Of a stretch of 64,000 nt of DNA, positions 9,065 to 61,373 are shown piece after piece. Source of the stretch: Chitinophaga pinensis (GTDB lineage Bacteria > Bacteroidota > Bacteroidia > UKL13-3). Each line of letters begins with the position of its first letter. The first letter of the stretch is position 1. Both the position numbers and the translations under genes were made by a program. The stretch is taken from assembly GCA_945861965.1 (NCBI GenBank), contig CAMAWM010000001.1, positions 43,565-107,564 on the forward strand, written 5' to 3'. The notes beneath the pieces are model-generated. The model saw only the letters and a list, made by a program, of their open reading frames with translations, made no database searches and was not told where the DNA came from.

Positions 9065-12000
9065 ATGAAACAGAATAAACTAATTTCAAATTTTTTTTTC
9101 TTGTTTCTATTCGTAATTTCTTTTCAAACTATAAAAGCACAACGCTGGGGCGATTATACTCTTTACAGCGCGCTTAATAGTACCAGCACCTATTTATTAG
9201 ATACAGCAGGAAATGTATTTAGAACTTACAATACAAATGGTGCGCCAACTGGAGCACAATGTTATTTAATGCCTGGTGGAATTTTGTATCGCGCAGCAAC
9301 AACAAATAATTCATTCAATGGAAGTGGAACTACTGGAAGATTTCAAAGACTTAGTGCTAATGGAACTGTTAATTGGGATGTAACCTATTCGTCAAGCACC
9401 TATTGTGCACACAATGATTTTCATGTAATGCCAAATGGAAATGTTTTAATTATGGCTTATGAATTAAGATCGGCAAGTGAGGTAGTTGCAGCCGGAAGCT
9501 CAGTTAATCACGCAATGTGGATGGAGAGAATTATTGAAGTACAGCCAACTGGAGGAGGAGGAAATATCGTTTGGCAATGGAGTTCGTTTAATCATCTTTC
9601 ACAAAATTACGATTCAACAAAAGCGAATTATTTACCTCTCATTTGGGCGAAACCTGAATTGTTAGATATTAATTTTAATAATAATGCAAATACATCTGAT
9701 TGGTTACATTTTACAGGTATTGATTACAATGCTGAATTGGATCAAATAGTTGTTAGTTCTCAAAATATGAATGAATTTTATGTAATTGATCATAGCACAA
9801 CAACGGCTGTAGCTGCAACACATTCGGGTGGTAATTCGGGAAAAGGAGGAGATATTCTTTACAGATGGGGAAATCCTGCAGCCTATTCAGCAGGCAATAA
9901 CAGCAATCGAATTTTTAATGGAATAAACGATGCACATTGGGTTCCTAAAAATTGTCCAAGAGGAGGATATTTAGTAGGATTTAACAACAATACAACAGCA
10001 ACTGCATCATCCATTGATATGGCAAATCCTCCTTATTTTGGATACAATTATTCATTGAGTGGAATAGCATATTCTCCTTCAACATATAGTTATCGTAGAT
10101 TGTGTAATGGTAAAACAAATTCTTTAGGAATTTCACAACAATTACCCAACGGAAACACATTGATTACAATGTCTAATTTAGGCGTTATTTACGAAATAGA
10201 TTCGAATGGCACCACTGTTTGGTCAAAAACCATAACGGGAGGAACAGGAGTTCCAAATGTTCCACAAGCATTACGTTATGCTGCATGTTATGTAAATGGT
10301 ACTCCAACTATAACAGCAACAACAAACAAACCCTCGATTTGTGCAGGAACAATTGTTAGTTTAGGTGCAAATCCAGCTGGTGGTTCAAATTATACTTACG
10401 CATGGAAATCATCGCCAGCTGGTTTAATTTCAACCTCACAAAATCCAGTAGTGAATCCTACAGTTACTACAACATATACAGTAACTGTTACTAGTGGTTT
10501 ATGTACGGCTTCTTCATCAGTAACAGTTACAGTCATACCTCAACCAGTAGTCAATGTGTTATCAAATCCAACAACTATTTGTTTAGGAACTTCCTCTCAA
10601 TTATCAGCCACCATGTCGGGTACAGGAACCTATACCTATTCATGGGTTGCAACACCAGGGACCTTTACTTCAAACAATCAATATCCTATTGTTTCACCTT
10701 CAGTAAATACAACGTATTTGGTTACAGCAACAGGAACAACAAATGGTTGCACTGATACTGGAATTGCTTTGGTTAATGTTGGTGCAAATCCAGTTGTTAC
10801 TATCAATAATAGCAATCCAACAATATGTGTTGGAAATTCTACTCGCTTAACGGCAACAGCAAGTGGAGGAGGAAATGTTTATACGTATTCATGGACTTCA
10901 TTACCCGTTGGATTTACTTCAACTGCACCCAATCCGTTGGTAACACCAACTGGAACTACTATTTATACAGTCAAAGTTAAAAGCGCTTTATGTACTGATT
11001 CAACTTATCAAAGTATTACTGTTACTGTAAATACGTATCCAACTGTAGTTGGAAGTTCAGATTCAAATAATTTTTGTGCAGGTGGATCAACTCAATTACG
11101 TAGCATAGCAAGTGGAGGAGATTCAACTTATACTTATTCATGGACTTCAAATCCAACAGGATTTACATCAACACTTCAGAATCCAATTGTTACACCAACA
11201 ACAAGCACAATATATATTATTCGAGTTACTAGTGGTGGATGCACATCAGCTCCATATAATGTTGCTGTTACGGTTAAAAGAATTCCTTCATTTAGTATTT
11301 CAACAACAACGCCTACTATTTGTTATGGTGCATCAGCTCAATTAAATATTACAATAGTTGGAGATACACCATTTGTTTATAATTGGTCGTCAAATCCATC
11401 TGGGTTTTCATCAAATTTAAAAAACCCAATAGTATCTCCTTTAGTAAATACAGTTTATTCGGTTTTAGTTACAAGTGGATTAAATTGTTCAGCTACATCA
11501 AGTATTACGATTAATATTAAACCGAGACCAACAGTAACTGCAAGTGCAACTTCAACTCTTATTTGTTCTGGTGGATTAGCAAGATTAAATGCTGAAGTAA
11601 CTGGTGATGCACCTTATACATATTCTTGGACTTCCATACCAGCGGGATTCACTTCTACTATTTCCAATCCATTTGTAAACCCAATTGTAAATACAAGCTA
11701 TAAAGTTGTTGTTACAAGCGGTGGATGTACAGATACAGCTTCAAATACAGTTTCTATTAATTTAATAAATTTGACGGTAAATGCTACAGCAAATAATACG
11801 AATATTTGTCCGGGAACGAGTACATCATTGAATGCTTCGCCAAGTGGTGGTTCAATTTACTCATACAATTGGAGATCTGTTCCACTAGGATTTAATTCTA
11901 CTCAACAAAATCCAAATATCAATCCTGCAATTACAAGAACATATTTTGTTAGAGTAACAAGTGTAGGATGTAGCGATACTGCAACCTCATCTGTTACTGT

Positions 12001-43443: not shown

Positions 43444-46400
43444 TTGAAAATACAAGAGCTTTTATCGCTTTATAGTACAAGCGAAAAAATACAAAATTTA
43501 AATAGCAGGATTAATCAAAAATCCAGAAATCGAATTTGTCTAAGTGGGCTAATTGGCTCGGTTGATGCAATTGTTGCAGCATCTACTTTTCAATTAAATT
43601 CTCGTACTCAACTCTTTATTTTTAACGATGCAGAGGAAGCAAAATATTTCCAAAACGATTTGGAAAACTTGTTAGAAGGCAAAAAGATTTTATACTTTCC
43701 GCCATCCTACAAACGAAGTTTTCAAATTGAAACTTTAGACAACAACAATGTTCTTGAAAGATCAGAAGTTCTCAATAAATTGACATTAAAATTGTCAAAA
43801 GGCGATTTGATTTGTACAACTGCCGAAGCATTGTCTGAATTGGTAATTAGCGAAGAGGATTTAACAAAAAATACCTATGAATTAAAAGTTGGAGATAAAT
43901 TTGATTTAGAATTTTTCATCGAATTTTTAACAGAACATTCGTTTGAAAGAAAAGATTTTGTATACGAAGCCGGTGAATTTAGTATTCGTGGAGGAATAAT
44001 AGATGTGTATTCATATAGCAACGAACATCCTTACCGAATCGAATTGAATGGCGATTTTGTTGAATCTATCAGAACTTTTGATACGTATAATCAATTATCA
44101 ATTAAAAAAGTTGAACGATTTTTTATTATTCCTAATATTCAGAAAGATATAGATACAACAGCTAAAAAAACTTTTTTTAATTATCTGAAGAACGATACAA
44201 TCATCTGGACAAAGGAATTACAACTTAGCATTGATTTGATAAAAAATGCAGAAGAAAAGTTGATCGTTAATGAAAAGTCTAAACGGGATTCAACATCAAA
44301 AAAATACGCGACTGATTTCATCAATTCCGAACAATTCATTAATTCAATAAAGAATTTTTCGATTGTTGAATTTGGGCTGCGAAATTATTTTAAAGACGAT
44401 CAGAAAATTGTATTTGAAATTTCGCCACAACCTACATTCCATAAAAATTTTGTTTTGTTGAATGAAAACTTAAAAAAAAATCAATCTGAAAACTTCAAGA
44501 ATTTAATTTTTAGTGATAGCGCGCGGCAAATTGAAAGACTCTATAGTATTTTTGATGACCTTGATAAAACCATCGAGTTTGCTCCAGTTTATCATGCTTT
44601 AACAAATGGATTTGTCGATAAAAATTTAAAAATTGCTTGTTATACCGAACATCAAATATTTGATCGATTTTATCGTGTAAGGTCAAGAAAGTATTTCAGC
44701 AATTCAAAAATAATTACACTAAAAGAGTTAAGCGAATTAAAACCTGGAGATTTTGTAACTCACATAGATCATGGCATTGGAAAGTTTGCAGGATTGGAAA
44801 AAATTGAAATCAATGGACGAATTCAAGAAGCCGTTCGATTGGTTTATAAAAACGATGATTTACTTTATGTAAGTATTAATTCGCTGCACAAAATTACTCG
44901 TTATACGGGAAAAGATGGTGTTGAACCACGATTGCATAAACTTGGAAGCGACACTTGGGAAAAATTGAAATCACAAACCAAGAAAAAAGTAAAAGACATA
45001 GCTCGTGATTTAATTAAATTGTATGCTGCACGAAAAGCTCAACCAGGATTTCAATTTAATCCAGATAGTTATTTGCAAGCCGAACTTGAAGCAAGTTTTA
45101 TTTATGAAGACACACCCGATCAAATATTAGCAACACAGGATTTTAAAAAAGACATGGAATCTCCGCATCCAATGGACAGATTAGTTTGTGGTGATGTTGG
45201 ATTTGGAAAAACGGAAATCGCTATTCGAGCAGCATTCAAAGCGGTTACAGATAGCAAACAAGTTGCTGTGTTGGTTCCAACAACAATTTTGGCCAATCAA
45301 CATTTTCGCACTTTTAAAGAGAGATTAAAAGATTTTCCATGTACAGTTGATTACATCAATCGCTTTAGAAGCTCTGCTGAGCAGAAACAAATTTTTGGAA
45401 AAGTACAGCAAGGTAAAATTGACATTTTGATTGGGACGCATCGAATGTTGAGCAAAGATGTAAAATTTAAAGATTTAGGATTGTTAGTGATTGATGAAGA
45501 ACAAAAATTTGGAGTAAGTTCAAAAGAAAAAATTAAATCATTAAGAACAAATGTAGATACGCTTACGCTCACTGCAACGCCAATTCCACGCACTTTGCAT
45601 TTTAGTTTAATGGGAGCTCGCGATTTGTCAATCATAAATACAGCACCTGCCAATCGACAAGCAGTTTCAACCGAATTGCATAATTACAACGATGACCTGA
45701 TTAAAGAAGTTGTATTGAAAGAAGTAGAGCGAGGCGGTCAAGTTTTTGTTGTACATCATCGTGTCAAAGACATTTATGATTTTGCAAATAGAATTTCAAC
45801 ATTGTGTTCAGGAGTAAAAGTTGGTGTTGCACACGGGCAATTGGAAGGAGACAAATTGGAAGATGTAATGATGAAATTTATTGAGGGCGAATACGATGTG
45901 TTGGTTGCTACAACTATTATTGAAAGTGGATTAGATATTCCCAATGCAAATACTATAATAATTAATAATGCGCACATGTTTGGACTTAGCGATTTGCACC
46001 AAATGCGTGGTCGTGTGGGTAGAACAAATAAAAAAGCATTTTGTTATTTAATGGTTCCTAGTATTTCAACTTTAACTGCTGATGCCAAAAGAAGATTGCA
46101 AGCCATTGAAGAATTTAGTGATTTGGGAAGCGGGTTTAATGTTGCTATGCGTGATTTGGATATTCGTGGTGCTGGAAATTTATTGGGGGGAGAACAAAGT
46201 GGATTTATTGCTGAAATAGGATTTGAAATGTATCACAAAATATTGGATGAAGCAATTCGCGAACTTAAAGAAGAGGAATTCAACAGCTCTCCAATTAGTG
46301 AAAATGAAGAAACAAGTTTTAATGAAAGAGGCAGTAAAAATATAAATACAAGTTCTGCTTCATTATTGAATAAAAATTATTCGGTTGAAACAACAATTGA

Positions 46401-55189: not shown

Positions 55190-55642
55190 ATGTATAACAA
55201 TTTATTACACATTCATAGTTGGTTGCGCTGGGCATTTTTGCTTGCCGCTTTATATCCAATAGTTCGTTCGTTTTACGGAATGATGTACGGAAAACAATTT
55301 ACAAAACAAGATAATACAGCTGCAACAATTTTACTTGCGTTGGCACATACGATGTTATTGCTCGGAATAATTTTGTTTTTTTTAAGTCCTACAATCCAAG
55401 GAGCATTAGAGCAAGGAATGTCTGCAATTATGAAAGACCCAACTTTGCGTCCTCTTGTGATTGAACATCCAGCTTGCATGATTATTTCTGTGGCGTTAAT
55501 TCAAATTGGAAGGATAAAAAGCAAATCTGCTTACGAAGACAGAGTAAAACACCGCAGAACTTATATGTATTACGGAATTGCCTTAATAATTATTCTTTCG
55601 ATGATTCCATGGGAAAGTGCTCCGCTGATGCGAGGAGTTTAA
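55190..55642 (+). CDS. Four-TM membrane protein, hypothetical
   Basis: 150-aa hydrophobic ORF; no recognisable domain. Confidence 0.4.
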   Translation: MYNNLLHIHSWLRWAFLLAALYPIVRSFYGMMYGKQFTKQDNTAATILLALAHTMLLLGIILFFLSPTIQGALEQGMSAIMKDPTLRPLVIEHPACMIISVALIQIGRIKSKSAYEDRVKHRRTYMYYGIALIIILSMIPWESAPLMRGV

Positions 55643-55649
55643 TTTACTA

Positions 55650-55701
55650 AAAATACTTAATCAAAAAAGCAAAAGCTCTTTCTTCACTCCAATATTTTGT
55701 T
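55650..55701. repeat. Left copy of a ~55-bp direct repeat (degenerate duplicate of the 58547..59563 hydrolase 3' end)
   Basis: aaaatacttaatcaaaaaagcaaaagctctttcttcactccaatattttgtt, about 48/52 identical to 58603-58657. It begins 8 nt after the stop of the 55190..55642 ORF. Confidence 0.7.
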
Positions 55702-55779
55702 AGAAATGTAAAAAAAACACTCAACTATTTGTTTAATTGGGGTTTTTAATATTCTTTTGAAATTCAAAATATACATAGT

Positions 55780-57030
55780 ATGAGATTACAAATTCTGTGC
55801 TTACTTGTAGTTTTTGGAATAATAATTACAAGTTGTAAAAGGAGGCTGTCAACAGATTACGATTCGCCTTCTGCGAAAGTTCTTCAAAATTCTGCTGAAC
55901 AACAAAAATTGTTAAATAGAATAATTTGTTTACATGATTTATTTAAAGAAAACAGTCGGTTAGGTAAATCATCTTGGTCAGGCTCATATTCAATAGATTC
56001 AGCTATTATTTATGTTGAAGGGGCTTTAAATTACGAATGGGGTGATGCGCAATGTGATTTGCATGAATATATTAGTTATGAGACTGATGAATTTGAAGTG
56101 GAAATTAATAATAATACTGTGGCAGCAAGTGAAATGGATATATTATATGATTACTTAAACAATTATTCAGCAACAAATTATTATAGTGATTCTTCAGATA
56201 AGCATATACATTCAATAGACTTAGATATTAGTGATATTGAATCGTCAGCGAGCAATAAGCAACGGTTATTTGTGAGAATATTAGTTGCACAAAGAGCACA
56301 TGCTAATCCGGAATCAACCCAATCTAGTAATCCATTTAGTAATTTTAGTTACCGATATAATTATAATGGGGCTTTGTGCGCTGACCAGCCCTATTATTCT
56401 GAACTAGATTTTGGAATTTCTCGATCAGGACGTTGGCAAGATGTACATTTTGCTTGGCATGGCTTTGAATATGGCGGAGCTTTCCTTTTGGAAAGACAAG
56501 TAACAATGGATGAACAATACGTTCCAATTCCACCTCAAGGAAGTGCATATGATTATAGAGTTATTTTTATAAATATTGGTTATAATAATAATGGTGTCAG
56601 CCCGAATGGATTTATAACAGATAAAGACGAACCATTACCATCAAATACTTCAATGCCTAATGGTTCAACATTGGGTACTATTAATACCTCTAAACTCTAT
56701 TCGTATAGTTTTATCACTTCGCAAACTCAACAAAATAGACAAGATGCACATAACAATCTACCATGTTTATATGGAAATGATTTGTATTTTTACTATGGAT
56801 TTTTCCAAAACAATAATAACCTGATCGACAGATACAAACCATCGGCTGGTAAAGAGTTTCATAGTGTATTAGTTTATTCAAGATTTAAGAGATATACTGA
56901 TATACCACCAACTATTGCCTCAACTAAATTAAAGACAATTTCCTTAAATAGTGTTAATAAAGATATTTATTTCTGCCATGACTACAGATTATACTATGGA
57001 ATGCTTGTTTTTGGGCAAGGCTCTAATTAG
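55780..57030 (+). CDS. Lipoprotein of unknown function (N/Y/S-rich)
   Basis: Lipobox IITSC; no recognisable domain. Confidence 0.5.
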   Translation: MRLQILCLLVVFGIIITSCKRRLSTDYDSPSAKVLQNSAEQQKLLNRIICLHDLFKENSRLGKSSWSGSYSIDSAIIYVEGALNYEWGDAQCDLHEYISYETDEFEVEINNNTVAASEMDILYDYLNNYSATNYYSDSSDKHIHSIDLDISDIESSASNKQRLFVRILVAQRAHANPESTQSSNPFSNFSYRYNYNGALCADQPYYSELDFGISRSGRWQDVHFAWHGFEYGGAFLLERQVTMDEQYVPIPPQGSAYDYRVIFINIGYNNNGVSPNGFITDKDEPLPSNTSMPNGSTLGTINTSKLYSYSFITSQTQQNRQDAHNNLPCLYGNDLYFYYGFFQNNNNLIDRYKPSAGKEFHSVLVYSRFKRYTDIPPTIASTKLKTISLNSVNKDIYFCHDYRLYYGMLVFGQGSN

Positions 57031-57047
57031 ATAATAGTATAGACTTA

Positions 57048-58604
57048 ATGAAAACAATAGTTTATAGAAAAATAGCAAACAAGAATTTCTTCTTATTTGT
57101 TATTTTTTTATTCAGTCTGAGTATTATTTATGCTCAATCATTCATTAAGCAAAATTATAATGGTATATCTAATGGTTTGGCTGATATAGTTGAAATAAAT
57201 GAGAACTACTATTTCGCGGGATTTAGGTTTGATAGTTCCATTTACAGTATGAATTTATTGTTTCTTAAAGTATCCCAAAAAGGCGATGTAATTAAAAATA
57301 AAGAATTTGAAGTCAAGGATTCATTATTTTATCCTAAGAAATGGCTATTCTTTAAAAATAATTTTTACTATATTGGTTATAAAATACACAGCCATTATGA
57401 CGATACTAACAATTTTGATTTGAAATTTAAACGTTGGCTTTGTTTTTATAAACTTGATACCTTTTTTAATTTAATTCATTACAATGAAATATTAATAGAT
57501 TCCGTTGTAGATAATCCTCCTTACAATGATAACTTTGGGGTTGAAGTTATTAACGATAAAATATTTGTTGTGGCATGTATTAGTAGGGTAATCCCTAAAG
57601 ACACAATTTACTCATCAAATTGGGCAAGTTTTATTTTTACTATTGAAGAATCAGAAAATATTCAACTTTTTAAAAAATATCTTAATTTTAATGATAGTAC
57701 AGAATCAAAATTTTTATCAAAAATTATTTCTGTCAAAAACCAAATATACTTATATTCAGGGGGTTATTTTTTTATAACGGATTCTACTTTCGATAAATTA
57801 TCTTATGTGCCTATGGGTGGTTTGGAATCATATCCCCAAAGTCCTTTTGATATTCCTATTACTATAAAAAAATACGCTGATGATAAGTTTTTAATTGCTG
57901 GTATTTGTTTCTGGTTTCCTAATCCAGGTATCCCGGTTGGAGGCGACCAATATACTTTGTCGATTGCATACGTTGATAGTTCGGCACATTTTATAAATAA
58001 GAATATTATTAATCCAAATGGCATCAGAGACTTTAAACCTTATGATAATAGTGAAAGCCCATTGTCACTTATTGATTATTATGATAAAAACAATATTTAC
58101 GTTTCAATGAGTAATACTAACAATCAATTGTATGTGGTAAATCTTGATTCTAATTTTACTAAAAAATGGGAACGATTAATACCAATTTCAAATTTTGACA
58201 ATGCCGTATGTATTAAATTGTATAATACTGTAGCCACAAGTGATGGAGGGGTTTTAATACTTACAGTAATATTTAAAAAAATAAATAATGTAACCAAGGC
58301 ATCACATTATGTTTTAAAATTTGATAATAAAGGCAAAAGTAGTTTCCTTAAAGAAATTATTCATGCAAAGGATGTATTTCAGATTTATCCTAACCCATTT
58401 AGTAAGAAATTACTTTTAAAAAACGAAACGAATTCACTATGTATAATTCATATTTTTAATATGATGGGTAAAGAGGTATATACTATTATTGTAAATGATT
58501 CAGAGGGCTTTATTGATACCTCATATTTAAGCGAAGGTTTATATTTTTACGAAATTAAGAATAACAATGGACTCATAACTAAAGGGAAATTAATAAAAGA
58601 ATAA
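57048..58604 (+). CDS. T9SS cargo protein of unknown function with a Por_Secre_tail C-terminal domain
   Basis: Signal peptide; the C-terminal ~80 aa read QIYPNPFSKKLLLKNETNSLCIIHIFNMMGKEVYTI ... LSEGLYFYEIKNNNGLITKGKLIKE. Confidence 0.65.
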   Translation: MKTIVYRKIANKNFFLFVIFLFSLSIIYAQSFIKQNYNGISNGLADIVEINENYYFAGFRFDSSIYSMNLLFLKVSQKGDVIKNKEFEVKDSLFYPKKWLFFKNNFYYIGYKIHSHYDDTNNFDLKFKRWLCFYKLDTFFNLIHYNEILIDSVVDNPPYNDNFGVEVINDKIFVVACISRVIPKDTIYSSNWASFIFTIEESENIQLFKKYLNFNDSTESKFLSKIISVKNQIYLYSGGYFFITDSTFDKLSYVPMGGLESYPQSPFDIPITIKKYADDKFLIAGICFWFPNPGIPVGGDQYTLSIAYVDSSAHFINKNIINPNGIRDFKPYDNSESPLSLIDYYDKNNIYVSMSNTNNQLYVVNLDSNFTKKWERLIPISNFDNAVCIKLYNTVATSDGGVLILTVIFKKINNVTKASHYVLKFDNKGKSSFLKEIIHAKDVFQIYPNPFSKKLLLKNETNSLCIIHIFNMMGKEVYTIIVNDSEGFIDTSYLSEGLYFYEIKNNNGLITKGKLIKE

Positions 58605-59563
58605 AAGTACTTACTCAAAAAAGCAAAAGCTCTTTCTTCGCTCCAATAATTTTTGTTGGGAAAACTTTTTGAAAATCCAACATGCCCACCTTGTTGAGTT
58701 GCTTCTAAATAAAAATATTCAGATTTTTTTGCGATTTCAAAAGGAAAACATTCTTCAGAAAGAAAAGGATCATTTAAAGCATTTACCAGCAAAGTTGGAA
58801 TTTTAATTTGATGTAAAAATTGTTTGCTGCTGCATTTTTGGTAATAATCAGTCGAATCGATAAATCCGTGAATTGGTGCTGTAAAGCGAGAATCCCAATC
58901 TGCAAAAGTTTTTATTTTTTCAATTCCTTCAGTATTTAATTTTTCGGAAAATAGTTTCGCTTTTTTTAGAATTTTTTTGTTCATGCTTTTTAAAAAGCGG
59001 TGCATATAAATTTTGTTTGAACCTTTAGCCAATGCTTTTGAACTTGCTGCCAAATCAACAGGAACTGAGAATGTAGCTGCGGATTTTATTTTTAAATTAA
59101 TGTTTACTGACTCCTCGCCCAAATATTTTAAAAGTGCATTTCCACCCAGACTAAAGCCACACAAAAAAATAGATTCATACAAATTGTCGGAAGAAATTTG
59201 ATTGATAACTTCTGAAATATCATCGCTCGCACCGCTGTGGTAGCTTCTTAGTTTTAAATTCATTTCGCCACTGCAGCCTCTAAAGTTTACTACACATACA
59301 TCAAAATTCCGCTCGCTGAAATATTTCGAAAACCCTTTGATATACTGAGATTGCGAACTTCCTTCCAATCCATGAAAAAGAATCAATAAATTTTTTGAGG
59401 AATTTGTAATCCAATCCAAATCTAAAAAATCGCCATCAGCTAATAATATTCGTTTGCGTTTGAAATGAATAGAAACATATCGAAATAAAGTTGGAAGTAT
59501 TGTTTCTACATGTTTGTTTTTAAAAAAACGATTGCCTTTAAAATTGGATTGTAGAATTGGCAT
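58547..59563 (-). CDS. Alpha/beta-fold hydrolase (YheT/ABHD-like)
   Basis: HGLEGSS ... GFSLGGNALLKYL (GxSxG) ... GGHVGF. The last ~15 codons may be read-through into the repeat. Confidence 0.7.
   Translation of the reverse strand: MPILQSNFKGNRFFKNKHVETILPTLFRYVSIHFKRKRILLADGDFLDLDWITNSSKNLLILFHGLEGSSQSQYIKGFSKYFSERNFDVCVVNFRGCSGEMNLKLRSYHSGASDDISEVINQISSDNLYESIFLCGFSLGGNALLKYLGEESVNINLKIKSAATFSVPVDLAASSKALAKGSNKIYMHRFLKSMNKKILKKAKLFSEKLNTEGIEKIKTFADWDSRFTAPIHGFIDSTDYYQKCSSKQFLHQIKIPTLLVNALNDPFLSEECFPFEIAKKSEYFYLEATQQGGHVGFSKSFPNKNYWSEERAFAFLSKYFYSFINFPLVMSPLLFLIS
58603..58657. repeat. Right copy of the ~55-bp direct repeat (authentic 3' end of the hydrolase gene)
   Basis: aaaagtacttactcaaaaaagcaaaagctctttcttcgctccaataatttttgtt. 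On the minus strand it encodes ...NKNYWSEERAFAFLS of the hydrolase. Confidence 0.7.
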
Positions 59564-60592: not shown

Positions 60593-60666
60593 TCCTTGGT
60601 AGCTCAGCTGGTTAGAGCACATGACTGTTAATCATGGGGTCGCTGGTTCGAGCCCAGCCCAGGGAG
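60593..60666 (+). tRNA. tRNA-Asn (anticodon GTT)
   Basis: 74-nt cloverleaf: acceptor stem tccttgg/ccaggga, D-arm gctc-agctggtta-gagc, anticodon arm catga-ctGTTaa-tcatg, 5-nt variable loop, T-arm gctgg-ttcgagc-ccagc. CCA is not encoded. Confidence 0.85.
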
Positions 60667-60670
60667 CAAA

Positions 60671-60728: not shown

Positions 60729-60756
60729 GTAGAGACGATGCATGCAACGTCTCTAC
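60729..60756. repeat. REP-like perfect palindrome
   Basis: gtagagacg-atgcatgcaa-cgtctctac: 9-bp perfect stem and 10-nt loop. Confidence 0.7.
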
Positions 60757-60778
60757 AGGGAATCATTTCATCATTATT

Positions 60779-61007
60779 TCAAACATAATAGTCATCTTCT
60801 TTCCAATTTACAGGATTATTTATGATATAATTTCTGATGTTTTCAAATGACCGAGCATCGCGAATGATGTGGTCGTAAAATCGGGGTTGCCATTCAAAAT
60901 CAGGGTTTATTTTTCGGCATTCTTTGCTGACTGCTGATTTGAATGACCTGATAATAACTGATAGTGAATATGCCTTTGGGCTAATATTCTGAAAATGCTA
61001 ATTTTAT
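60779..61007 (-). pseudogene. N-terminally truncated RAYT / IS200-like (HUH Y1) transposase remnant
   Basis: The minus-strand frame opens directly after an in-frame stop with no initiator and reads HFQNISPKAYSLSVIIRSFKSAVSKECRKINPDFEWQPRFYDHIIRDARSFENIRNYIINNPVNWKEDDYYV*. This matches the Y1 transposase C-terminus (SFKS..., WQ.RFYDH.IRDE..., YI.NNPV.W). The N-terminal HUH motif is missing. Confidence 0.7.
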
Positions 61008-61016
61008 TCGAATTAT

Positions 61017-61043
61017 GTAGAGACATTACATGCAACGTCAGAG
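61017..61043. repeat. Second, degenerate copy of the REP-like element
   Basis: gtagagacattacatgcaacgtcagag shares gtagagac..catgcaacgtc with the 60729 copy. Confidence 0.55.
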
Positions 61044-61121
61044 TGTGAAAAAACTATTCACAAACAGGATGTAAACATGAGGATAAAAGTAGAAAAAACA
61101 AAGCAAATAAGATTGTTCATT

Positions 61122-61373
61122 TGAGTATTCAAAACACATGGAATACATCACACCAATTTAATGGGACTAAAAAAAGTAAATGGAGAGTTTGCCTTAATCA
61201 TGATGGTTTATAACATGAAACGCTGCATGAATATTTTAGGAATGGATGATTTGATAGAAAAAATAAAAAACTGGGTACCCAATTACAAAGGGACAACTCC
61301 TATTTTTAATAAATCGACCTTTATAAAAGCCATTACAGCACACTTTTTTCGCCAACAAAAATTAGCAGCTTAA
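61122..61373 (+). pseudogene. C-terminal fragment of an IS5/IS1182-family DDE transposase
   Basis: ...GLKKVNGEFALIMMVYNMKRCMNILGMDDLIEKIK... resembles the conserved C-terminal helix (E..L...AYNLKR..N) of IS4/IS5/IS1182 transposases. No upstream DDE domain is found in any frame. Confidence 0.5.

Follow-up and report, generated by a model that had tools for sequence, protein, structure and literature searches.

A two-gene surface-protein islet between convergent core genes of a freshwater Bacteroidota species, most likely an old alternative allele exchanged by homologous recombination

Introduction

How do two genes come to lie between two copies of the tail of a neighboring gene in some strains of a species, when other, nearly identical strains carry neither the genes nor the second copy of the tail? 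The question is raised by a stretch of 64,000 nucleotides (nt) of DNA (positions 43,565 to 107,564 of contig CAMAWM010000001.1, assembly GCA_945861965.1, recorded under Chitinophaga pinensis), which was analyzed as a whole and is referred to here as the window. In it, a small islet sits between the convergent 3′ ends of two core genes, one encoding a YheT-like alpha/beta hydrolase and the other a membrane protein of 150 amino acids (aa). The islet holds genes for a putative lipoprotein and for a putative type IX secretion system (T9SS) cargo protein, and is bracketed by a 54/56-nt duplication of the last 17 codons of the hydrolase gene. An earlier reading of the window, made from its letters alone and called here the sequence-only reading, had explained the duplication by insertion of a cassette at the 3′ end of the hydrolase gene. 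The comparison with other strains of the species points to a different history, in which the islet is an alternative allele of considerable age, most probably exchanged through double-crossover homologous recombination in the flanking core genes, a view to which we give a probability of roughly 0.7.

The Duplicated Gene Tail

The two copies of the hydrolase tail, A and B, are direct repeats. A repeat finder matched copy A (55648–55698) with copy B (58602–58652) at 47 of 51 positions without a gap, and gapped local alignment extended both copies to the limits given in Table 1, with three substitutions, one 2-nt indel, and 51 of 56 columns matching, the divergence between the copies being about 5–9%. 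They share an identical 25-nt core (TCAAAAAAGCAAAAGCTCTTTCTTC), on either side of which the differing positions lie and which occurs exactly twice in the 64 kb when up to three mismatches are allowed, at a chance expectation of 0 matches (100 shuffles). The coordinates and the degree of identity given by the sequence-only reading were right, as was its statement that exactly two open reading frames (ORFs), oriented alike, lie between the copies. That the repeat might be a common intergenic element is not what was seen, its core being restricted to these two places in the window and having no match among viral contigs.

Copy B now serves as the coding end of the hydrolase gene. Its minus-strand translation (..NKNYWSEERAFAFLSKYF) is not followed by a stop, and the reading frame continues after this stop loss to 58547, which adds 18 hydrophobic residues (YSFINFPLVMSPLLFLIS) encoded on the strand opposite to the final codons of the T9SS gene. 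The read-through tail with its stop occupies 58547–58600, in antisense overlap with the T9SS gene, the TAA stop of which is formed by the first three nucleotides of copy B. An altered C-terminus of the hydrolase had been anticipated by the sequence-only reading and is indeed found, in the form of the lost stop; its placing of the gene end at 58603 has to be corrected, the true end being 56 nt further. Copy A retains the original TAG stop of the hydrolase (55647–55649), 4 nt from the stop of the 150-aa gene as in strains with an empty site, and carries a 2-nt deletion relative to copy B that breaks the frame upstream. The in-frame stop that had been reported for copy A is real, but it is the stop that the gene originally had.

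One of the positions that separate copy A from copy B is also variable elsewhere in the species. The empty-site contig L022 carries, at about its position 2345 (GGAGTGAAG), the T that is found in copy A at 55686, which makes this difference a segregating population polymorphism and not a decay specific to copy A.

Filled and Empty Sites among Strains

Exact look-ups of the window proteins returned only the filled arrangement, in several samples and from several assemblers, including the metagenome-assembled genome GCA_947485195.1. The 338-aa form of the hydrolase is recorded in 14 contigs, six of which were compared; they come from independent samples and assemblers and have the same arrangement with identical junctions, which means that the islet is not an assembly artefact. 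The filled contigs are near-clonal, with 0–2 differences in 2.6 kb. A homologue search found a 320-aa hydrolase (P0001) that is 98% identical to that of the window, and the empty site is present in at least 11 contigs, namely ten with P0001 (L013–L022) and the Joint Genome Institute (JGI) contig L031, all with a single copy of the repeat and no cassette. In them, only 4 nt separate the stop of the hydrolase from the convergent 150-aa gene, so that the ORF at 55190–55642 directly adjoins the hydrolase gene, as the sequence-only reading had expected of an empty site. A scan of metagenome contigs with the hydrolase found one contig of 1.1 kb, which is of the empty type.

The window and L013 are 99.1–99.3% identical over 15 kb of shared flank, with equal gene order on both sides, and positions 10907–10950 of L013 align to copy A and to copy B alike. 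The cassette is a strain-specific accessory segment of a low-GC, uncultured freshwater Bacteroidota species, and in this the earlier suggestion holds, at least 11 contigs of strains about 99.2% identical being without it. The empty alleles comprise a main clade and the more distant L022 and L031, with four variants of the 320-aa protein that all end in AYSFFSSYL. In the hydrolase gene, the filled, the main empty, and the L031 lineages form a roughly star-like tree of three lineages, with 7, 3, and 8 private changes, respectively.

Outside the species, close relatives are scarce. A scan of genome contigs with the hydrolase gave relatives at 43–47% identity only and no close species, none of the 5.8 billion clusters searched held a hydrolase of between 63% and 98% identity, and the relatives at 63% identity are not syntenic, their neighbors being completely different. 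By these searches, the species is on a long, poorly sampled branch of freshwater Bacteroidota.

A Diverged Tract around the Site

The difference between filled and empty strains is not confined to the cassette and the second copy of the repeat. It occupies a block that comprises the tail of the 150-aa gene, copy A, the cassette, and the distal 27 nt of copy B (Table 1), outside of which the strains are about 99.2–99.6% identical. Over the last 27 nt of the hydrolase gene, A and B agree with each other at eight positions where all empty alleles differ from them (TTTTGCTTTTTTGA(G/T)TAAGTA in A and B, as against GTATTCTTTTTTTAG(C/T)AGCTA in the empty strains), and the divergence extends 60 nt beyond copy A into the 150-aa gene. 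The diverged tract at 55585–55674, which covers nine codons at the end of the hydrolase gene and 19 at the end of the 150-aa gene, differs at about 31 of 90 positions (about 34%), and at the junction the density of differences climbs to 27 per 200 nt, against a baseline of about 1 in the same length.

Within the tract, both genes keep their lengths and their stops remain 4 nt apart, and many of its differences are synonymous (L132, I134, I135, P140, S143, P145, and R148 of the 150-aa gene; A312, S317, and Y319 of the hydrolase), which argues that it is an orthologous but old allele and not mutational damage. A second small cluster, at 55444–55450, consists of synonymous differences from all empty-site strains in three consecutive codons (T85, L86, and R87) and is separated from the main tract by 134 identical nt; it looks like a second small recombination patch, and the boundary of the tract is a mosaic. 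The divergence of copy A from copy B is about ten times the strain divergence in the flanking genes, yet far below that between the filled and the empty alleles; the two copies were never identical, or else the duplication, though old, postdates the split of these alleles. The eight variants shared by A and B, together with the tract past copy A, imply that the filled allele did not descend from the observed empty allele, and that the latter did not arise from the filled one by excision. A diverged tract of the kind that the alignments indicate cannot come about by local insertion and duplication of the target, nor by excision through recombination between A and B; a swap of the whole alternative allele (55585–58628) in a double-crossover homologous recombination accounts for it directly.

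Table 1. Features of the islet, its surroundings, and related loci (window coordinates unless a contig is named)
Feature	Coordinates	Strand	Description
Full allelic block versus empty-site strains	55585..58628	.	150-aa gene tail, copy A, cassette, and distal 27 nt of copy B
Repeat copy A	55648..55701	-	Displaced, non-functional remnant of the hydrolase 3′ end; encodes ..KYWSEERAFAFLIKYF, then TAG
Repeat copy B	58602..58657	-	In-frame coding 3′ end of the hydrolase; ..NYWSEERAFAFLSKYF; without stop codon
YheT-like alpha/beta hydrolase	58547..59563	-	338 aa here, 320 aa in empty-site strains
Convergent membrane protein, 150 aa	55190..55642	+	Other flank of the site; last 19 codons (55585–55642) within the diverged tract
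Spacer, 78 nt, from copy A to the lipoprotein start codon	55702..55779	+	Presumed promoter region of the cassette; without counterpart in empty-site strains
Lipoprotein, 416 aa	55780..57030	+	Predicted signal peptide and lipobox (..IITS before C); divergent member of a lipoprotein family without Pfam match
T9SS cargo protein, 518 aa	57048..58604	+	Predicted signal peptide, beta-propeller of ~400 aa, and type A C-terminal sorting domain (residues 446–518)
Pair-bearing loci in other Bacteroidota	L024 4873–11558; L032 2939–7051; L036 1996–4473; L037 1835–4485		

Possible Histories of the Islet

In the history that we propose, the duplication and the insertion of the cassette would have taken place earlier, in a lineage in which the tails of the hydrolase and 150-aa genes were already about one third diverged from the present empty allele. 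The present clonal frame would then either have acquired the block 55585–58628 or have kept it, through double-crossover homologous recombination, with one crossover in the hydrolase gene between 58629 and 58765 and the other in the 150-aa gene at or left of 55585. Consistent with such an exchange, the islet is present or absent at a fixed site between syntenic core genes, and a local peak of divergence stands out from a near-identical frame; gain by the filled lineage is favored. The event that first produced the duplication is a matter of speculation: it most resembles that of e14 in icd, where an element integrates at the 3′ end of a protein-coding gene, and may have been carried out by a recombinase no longer present or supplied in trans, or have been a Campbell-type integration of a circle that carried the gene tail. 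Our preferred guess, offered tentatively and with odds below even, is that an integration of site-specific or Campbell type took place at the gene tail in the source lineage and that any recombinase was lost afterwards. A Campbell-type single crossover in the present lineage was rejected, as it predicts a foreign tail of the 150-aa gene after copy B and a native distal half in copy A, neither of which is seen.

Several points weigh against the proposed exchange or loosen parts of it. The filled islet is found in one near-clonal lineage only, and a donor-type allele of the hydrolase was not found. The gap in hydrolase identity between 63% and 98%, together with the lack of synteny in the relatives at 63%, implies that the source lineage of the diverged tract is unsampled, so that the direction of gain or loss rests on weak parsimony. 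The mosaic tract calls for more than one recombination event, and the mechanism behind the duplication has no direct support, there being no recombinase present. Between 55702 and 58601, the insert encodes neither a recombinase nor a transposase, and terminal inverted repeats, an RNA family, and significant secondary structure are likewise lacking; neither of its two ORFs has a recombinase-family match in Pfam, NCBIfam, PHROGs, or PADLOC, the last two yielding nothing meaningful at all. In addition, the codon usage of the cargo genes is host-like, which is compatible with a close donor without being positive evidence for transfer: codon usage and GC content at third codon positions are within 1 standard deviation of the other window genes, and the comparison with the flanks that the sequence-only reading had suggested does not mark the insert as foreign. 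The sole outlier in composition is the T9SS gene, with 26.3% GC versus 33.5 ± 2.7%, its low GC content being due to a protein rich in N, I, K, F, and Y.

The explanation that would come to mind from a single genome is a recent de novo insertion of a mobile cassette into the lineage's own empty site, whether by an integrase, by a transposase, or in the manner of Campbell, with the repeats as a duplicated target or as attL and attR. Such an event would account for direct repeats that flank exactly the inserted genes, for an empty site with a single copy, and for differences between A and B on both sides of an identical core, as they would result from a crossover between non-identical attachment (att) sites. 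It fails, however, on the eight variants that A and B have in common and every empty allele lacks, and on the divergence that runs into the neighboring gene past copy A, which insertion cannot produce. Flanking repeats and a single-copy empty site are what an element with an integrase would leave, but a recombinase is lacking, the difference between the alleles is not limited to the element and the att core, and the repeat core is not in viral contigs. Target duplications made by transposases are short (2–15 bp), and the 55 nt seen here (54–56 nt) are far in excess of that; neither a transposase nor an inverted repeat joining the ends of the insert, as expected of a transposon or insertion sequence, is found. 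A recent insertion is therefore judged very improbable, and the earlier claim of a cassette inserted at the 3′ end of this lineage's own gene, with target duplication, is not supported by the comparison.

The opposite polarity deserves somewhat more weight, although we still think it unlikely. Here, the filled allele would be ancestral, and the empty allele would stem from the import of a divergent, cassette-free junction of the hydrolase and 150-aa genes by homologous recombination, which deleted the cassette. The diverged tract is symmetric in this regard, one of the two alleles being foreign to the clonal frame and either of them a candidate, and the root of the star-like hydrolase tree could lie on the filled branch. 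On the other side, empty alleles are found in at least three diverged lineages with four protein variants, the filled allele in one near-clonal lineage; the hydrolase with a normal stop is the family norm, with 317–327 aa in nearly all homologues and the 338-aa form as the odd one; and, as weak evidence, the F in the empty tail matches the tails of outgroup hydrolases (..FF..), the filled type having L. The last of the alternatives, in which the likeness of the two copies is due to chance, to assembly, or to a regulatory or terminator element present in two places, can be regarded as refuted by the comparative data. A small hairpin with a U-run is possible in the minus-strand transcript of both copies, as a terminator would have it, but the fold energies are no better than those of shuffled sequence (z −1.0 to +0.1), and the repeats have no match in Rfam. 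No match of the core is expected by chance, the codons of copy A line up one by one with those of the hydrolase tail in the empty strains, and six filled contigs from different samples and assemblers have identical junctions. Across the repeats and the spacer, a sigma-70 scan, a terminator scan, a search for TAnnTTTG, Rfam, and RNA folding gave nothing significant, and a consensus promoter was not found in the spacer.

The Hydrolase and Its Extended C-Terminus

The hydrolase matches PF00561 with 52.6 bits and NF008218 with 234.8 bits, under the equivalog cutoff of 267, and the profile match ends near residue 320; judging from these profiles, it is an alpha/beta-fold, YheT-like enzyme but not an NF008218 equivalog. 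Outside the diverged tract, four of the six codons with private changes in the filled strains are changed synonymously, from which the hydrolase of these strains appears to be still under purifying selection. A crossover between the two repeat copies within the 25-nt core would delete the cassette and restore a 320-aa hydrolase ending in ..AFAFLIKYF, an allele that was not found in the database. As a side observation, codons 84–85 of the gene (window 59309–59314) are triallelic, L031 encoding KQ and the main empty clade QQ where the filled strains have ER; they make a small patch of hypervariable surface on an enzyme that is conserved elsewhere.

The Cargo Genes as a Recurrent Pair

The second cargo gene encodes a protein with a T9SS C-terminal domain (CTD), as had been noticed from the start, residues 446–518 of 518 matching PF18962 (Por_Secre_tail) with 42.9 bits (cutoff 27) and TIGR04183 with 49.9 bits (cutoff 23). 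Identical copies aside, the proteins related to it share only about 25% identity with it and form a diffuse T9SS family of 470–525 aa, for which the search gave 1478 matches; ten members were scanned and had no Pfam domain beyond the sorting domain. An AlphaFold model built with a 24-sequence alignment is all-beta, with a mean predicted local distance difference test (pLDDT) score of 77.9 and a predicted template modeling (pTM) score of 0.73, and a Foldseek comparison with the PDB returned 7-bladed beta-propellers, e.g., CylK and Photorhabdus lectins, at ~10% identity and with no functional lead. By analogy with type A CTD cargo in general (PMC9143113), the cell surface is probably where the 518-aa propeller is displayed or from which it is released. 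Its predicted route of export is the T9SS, through which it is probably also anchored at the surface.

The 416-aa lipoprotein is more elusive. It had no family match, and a word-indexed search returned only the protein itself; a single-sequence AlphaFold model has a pLDDT of 30.5, and the profile of its family gave only noise matches to antibodies in the PDB. Its homologues were reached solely by reading the genes upstream of members of the T9SS family. In L024, L032, L036, and L037, a lipoprotein of 314–359 aa without Pfam match is encoded 58–90 nt upstream of a gene of the propeller family, and in L035 a truncated one is found in the same position. Homology links these lipoproteins with one another (pairwise E as low as 4e-35, for L032_333 with L036_314), and L037_359, L024_356, and the protein of L035 also belong to the family. 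The window lipoprotein joins them through L032_333 (E = 4e-11, and 8e-9 without the signal peptides) and L037_359 (E = 3e-4). Its predicted signal peptide ends in a lipobox, MRLQILCLLVVFGIIITS followed by a Cys that is invariant in 5/5 full-length family members.

The lipoprotein and the T9SS propeller are paired in 6/9 contexts examined, the lipoprotein being absent in those of L023, L034, and P0131, and the two cargo genes are, as far as these gene neighborhoods indicate, a conserved pair and not the two unrelated unknowns that they had been taken for. It is plausible that the linked lipoprotein is a partner or anchor of the propeller. Expression of the cassette, as well as lipidation, secretion, and interaction of its proteins, are predictions from sequence only.

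In other Bacteroidota, the pair is sometimes followed by further T9SS paralogues (of 487 aa in L032, and of 477 aa and 739 aa in L024), which suggests that the module occurs as expandable arrays. The contig L023, which holds the best partial homologue of the T9SS gene, was considered as a syntenic locus because of an adjacent enoyl-CoA hydratase and was dismissed, as the other neighbor gave no tblastn match to the hydrolase; that neighbor is taken, from its translation, to be a GpsA-like dehydrogenase.

A much bolder proposal can be built on these observations, in which the lipoprotein and the T9SS beta-propeller would be a widespread, extremely fast-evolving two-component surface module of Bacteroidota, perhaps acting as a phage-receptor decoy or a variable adhesin in which the lipoprotein anchors or partners the secreted propeller, with the on/off polymorphism in co-occurring strains kept by negative frequency-dependent selection. 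The 55-nt duplication would then be a recombinase-independent site of excision and re-integration, the cassette cycling between strains as a circle through its homology to the hydrolase tail. We regard this as highly speculative and would give it little credence.

Likeness to Known Systems

The closest parallel to the repeats is the prophage e14 of E. coli, the integration of which at the 3′ end of icd was reportedly described by Hill et al. in 1989, with phage 21 said to do likewise. As with e14, the insert lies at the 3′ end of a protein gene, with a functional hybrid gene to one side of it and, to the other, a tail copy that is displaced and slightly diverged; the two tails are direct repeats, and recombination between them would restore a gene of normal length. 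In the case of e14, a hybrid icd gene and the pseudogene icdC are left (PMC13626634). However, e14 is a 15-kb prophage with its own integrase and site-specific excision, whereas the islet has 2.9 kb, two surface-protein genes, and no recombinase. The two also differ in that restoration of the target is seamless in icd, while the hybrid gene of the islet loses its stop codon and the difference between strains extends beyond the repeats.

Among the integrative elements of Bacteroidota, NBU1, NBU2, and those of the conjugative transposon (CTn) type target tRNA genes. They resemble the islet in the use of a gene 3′ end as target and in flanking direct repeats, but the target of the islet is a protein gene, its repeats are longer and imperfect, and it has no tyrosine recombinase. 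The flexible genomic islands of aquatic bacteria, which are exchanged through homologous recombination in the core genes that flank them (Lopez-Perez et al. 2014, PMC4033161), offer a parallel of a different kind. The islet has in common with them its presence or absence at a fixed site in co-occurring conspecific strains, the lack of mobility genes, cargo destined for the cell surface, and island-proximal flanks that are far more diverged than the clonal frame. In contrast to such islands, it consists of two genes only, appears in an on/off state with two alleles seen and not as alternative cassettes, and holds an internal duplication of a gene tail. The propeller protein itself has the full-length CTD and the N-terminal signal peptide of type A cargo (Por_Secre_tail, TIGR04183), while its passenger, a predicted beta-propeller of ~400 aa, is without family assignment. 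A description of the recurrent pairing of such a propeller with an upstream lipoprotein was not found in the searches made.

A Second Variable Spot Nearby

A gene for tRNA-Asn(GTT) at 60593–60667 is followed by a second strain-variable spot, separate from the islet, where window positions 60751–61149 are replaced by a different sequence in L013 (8498–8813). It is bounded by palindromic repeats of the GTAGAGACGATGCATGCAACGTC type at 60729–60756 and 61017–61039, and a 70-aa ORF at 61161–61373 is the tail of a DDE_Tnp_1_6 transposase remnant that has 146 aa in L013.

Implications

The islet is ordinary strain-level variation in gene content, and neither its turnover nor the gene pair that it carries overturns current understanding. 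It does provide a clean, resolved case of the turnover of a very small accessory islet in natural freshwater populations without a mobility gene, in which the filled site, the empty site, and the breakpoints are all visible, and it illustrates that what appears in a single genome as a target-site duplication can be an inherited part of an old allele and not the scar of a recent insertion. The recurrent, uncharacterized pair of a lipoprotein and a T9SS beta-propeller may be a unit of strain-level surface variation in Bacteroidota.

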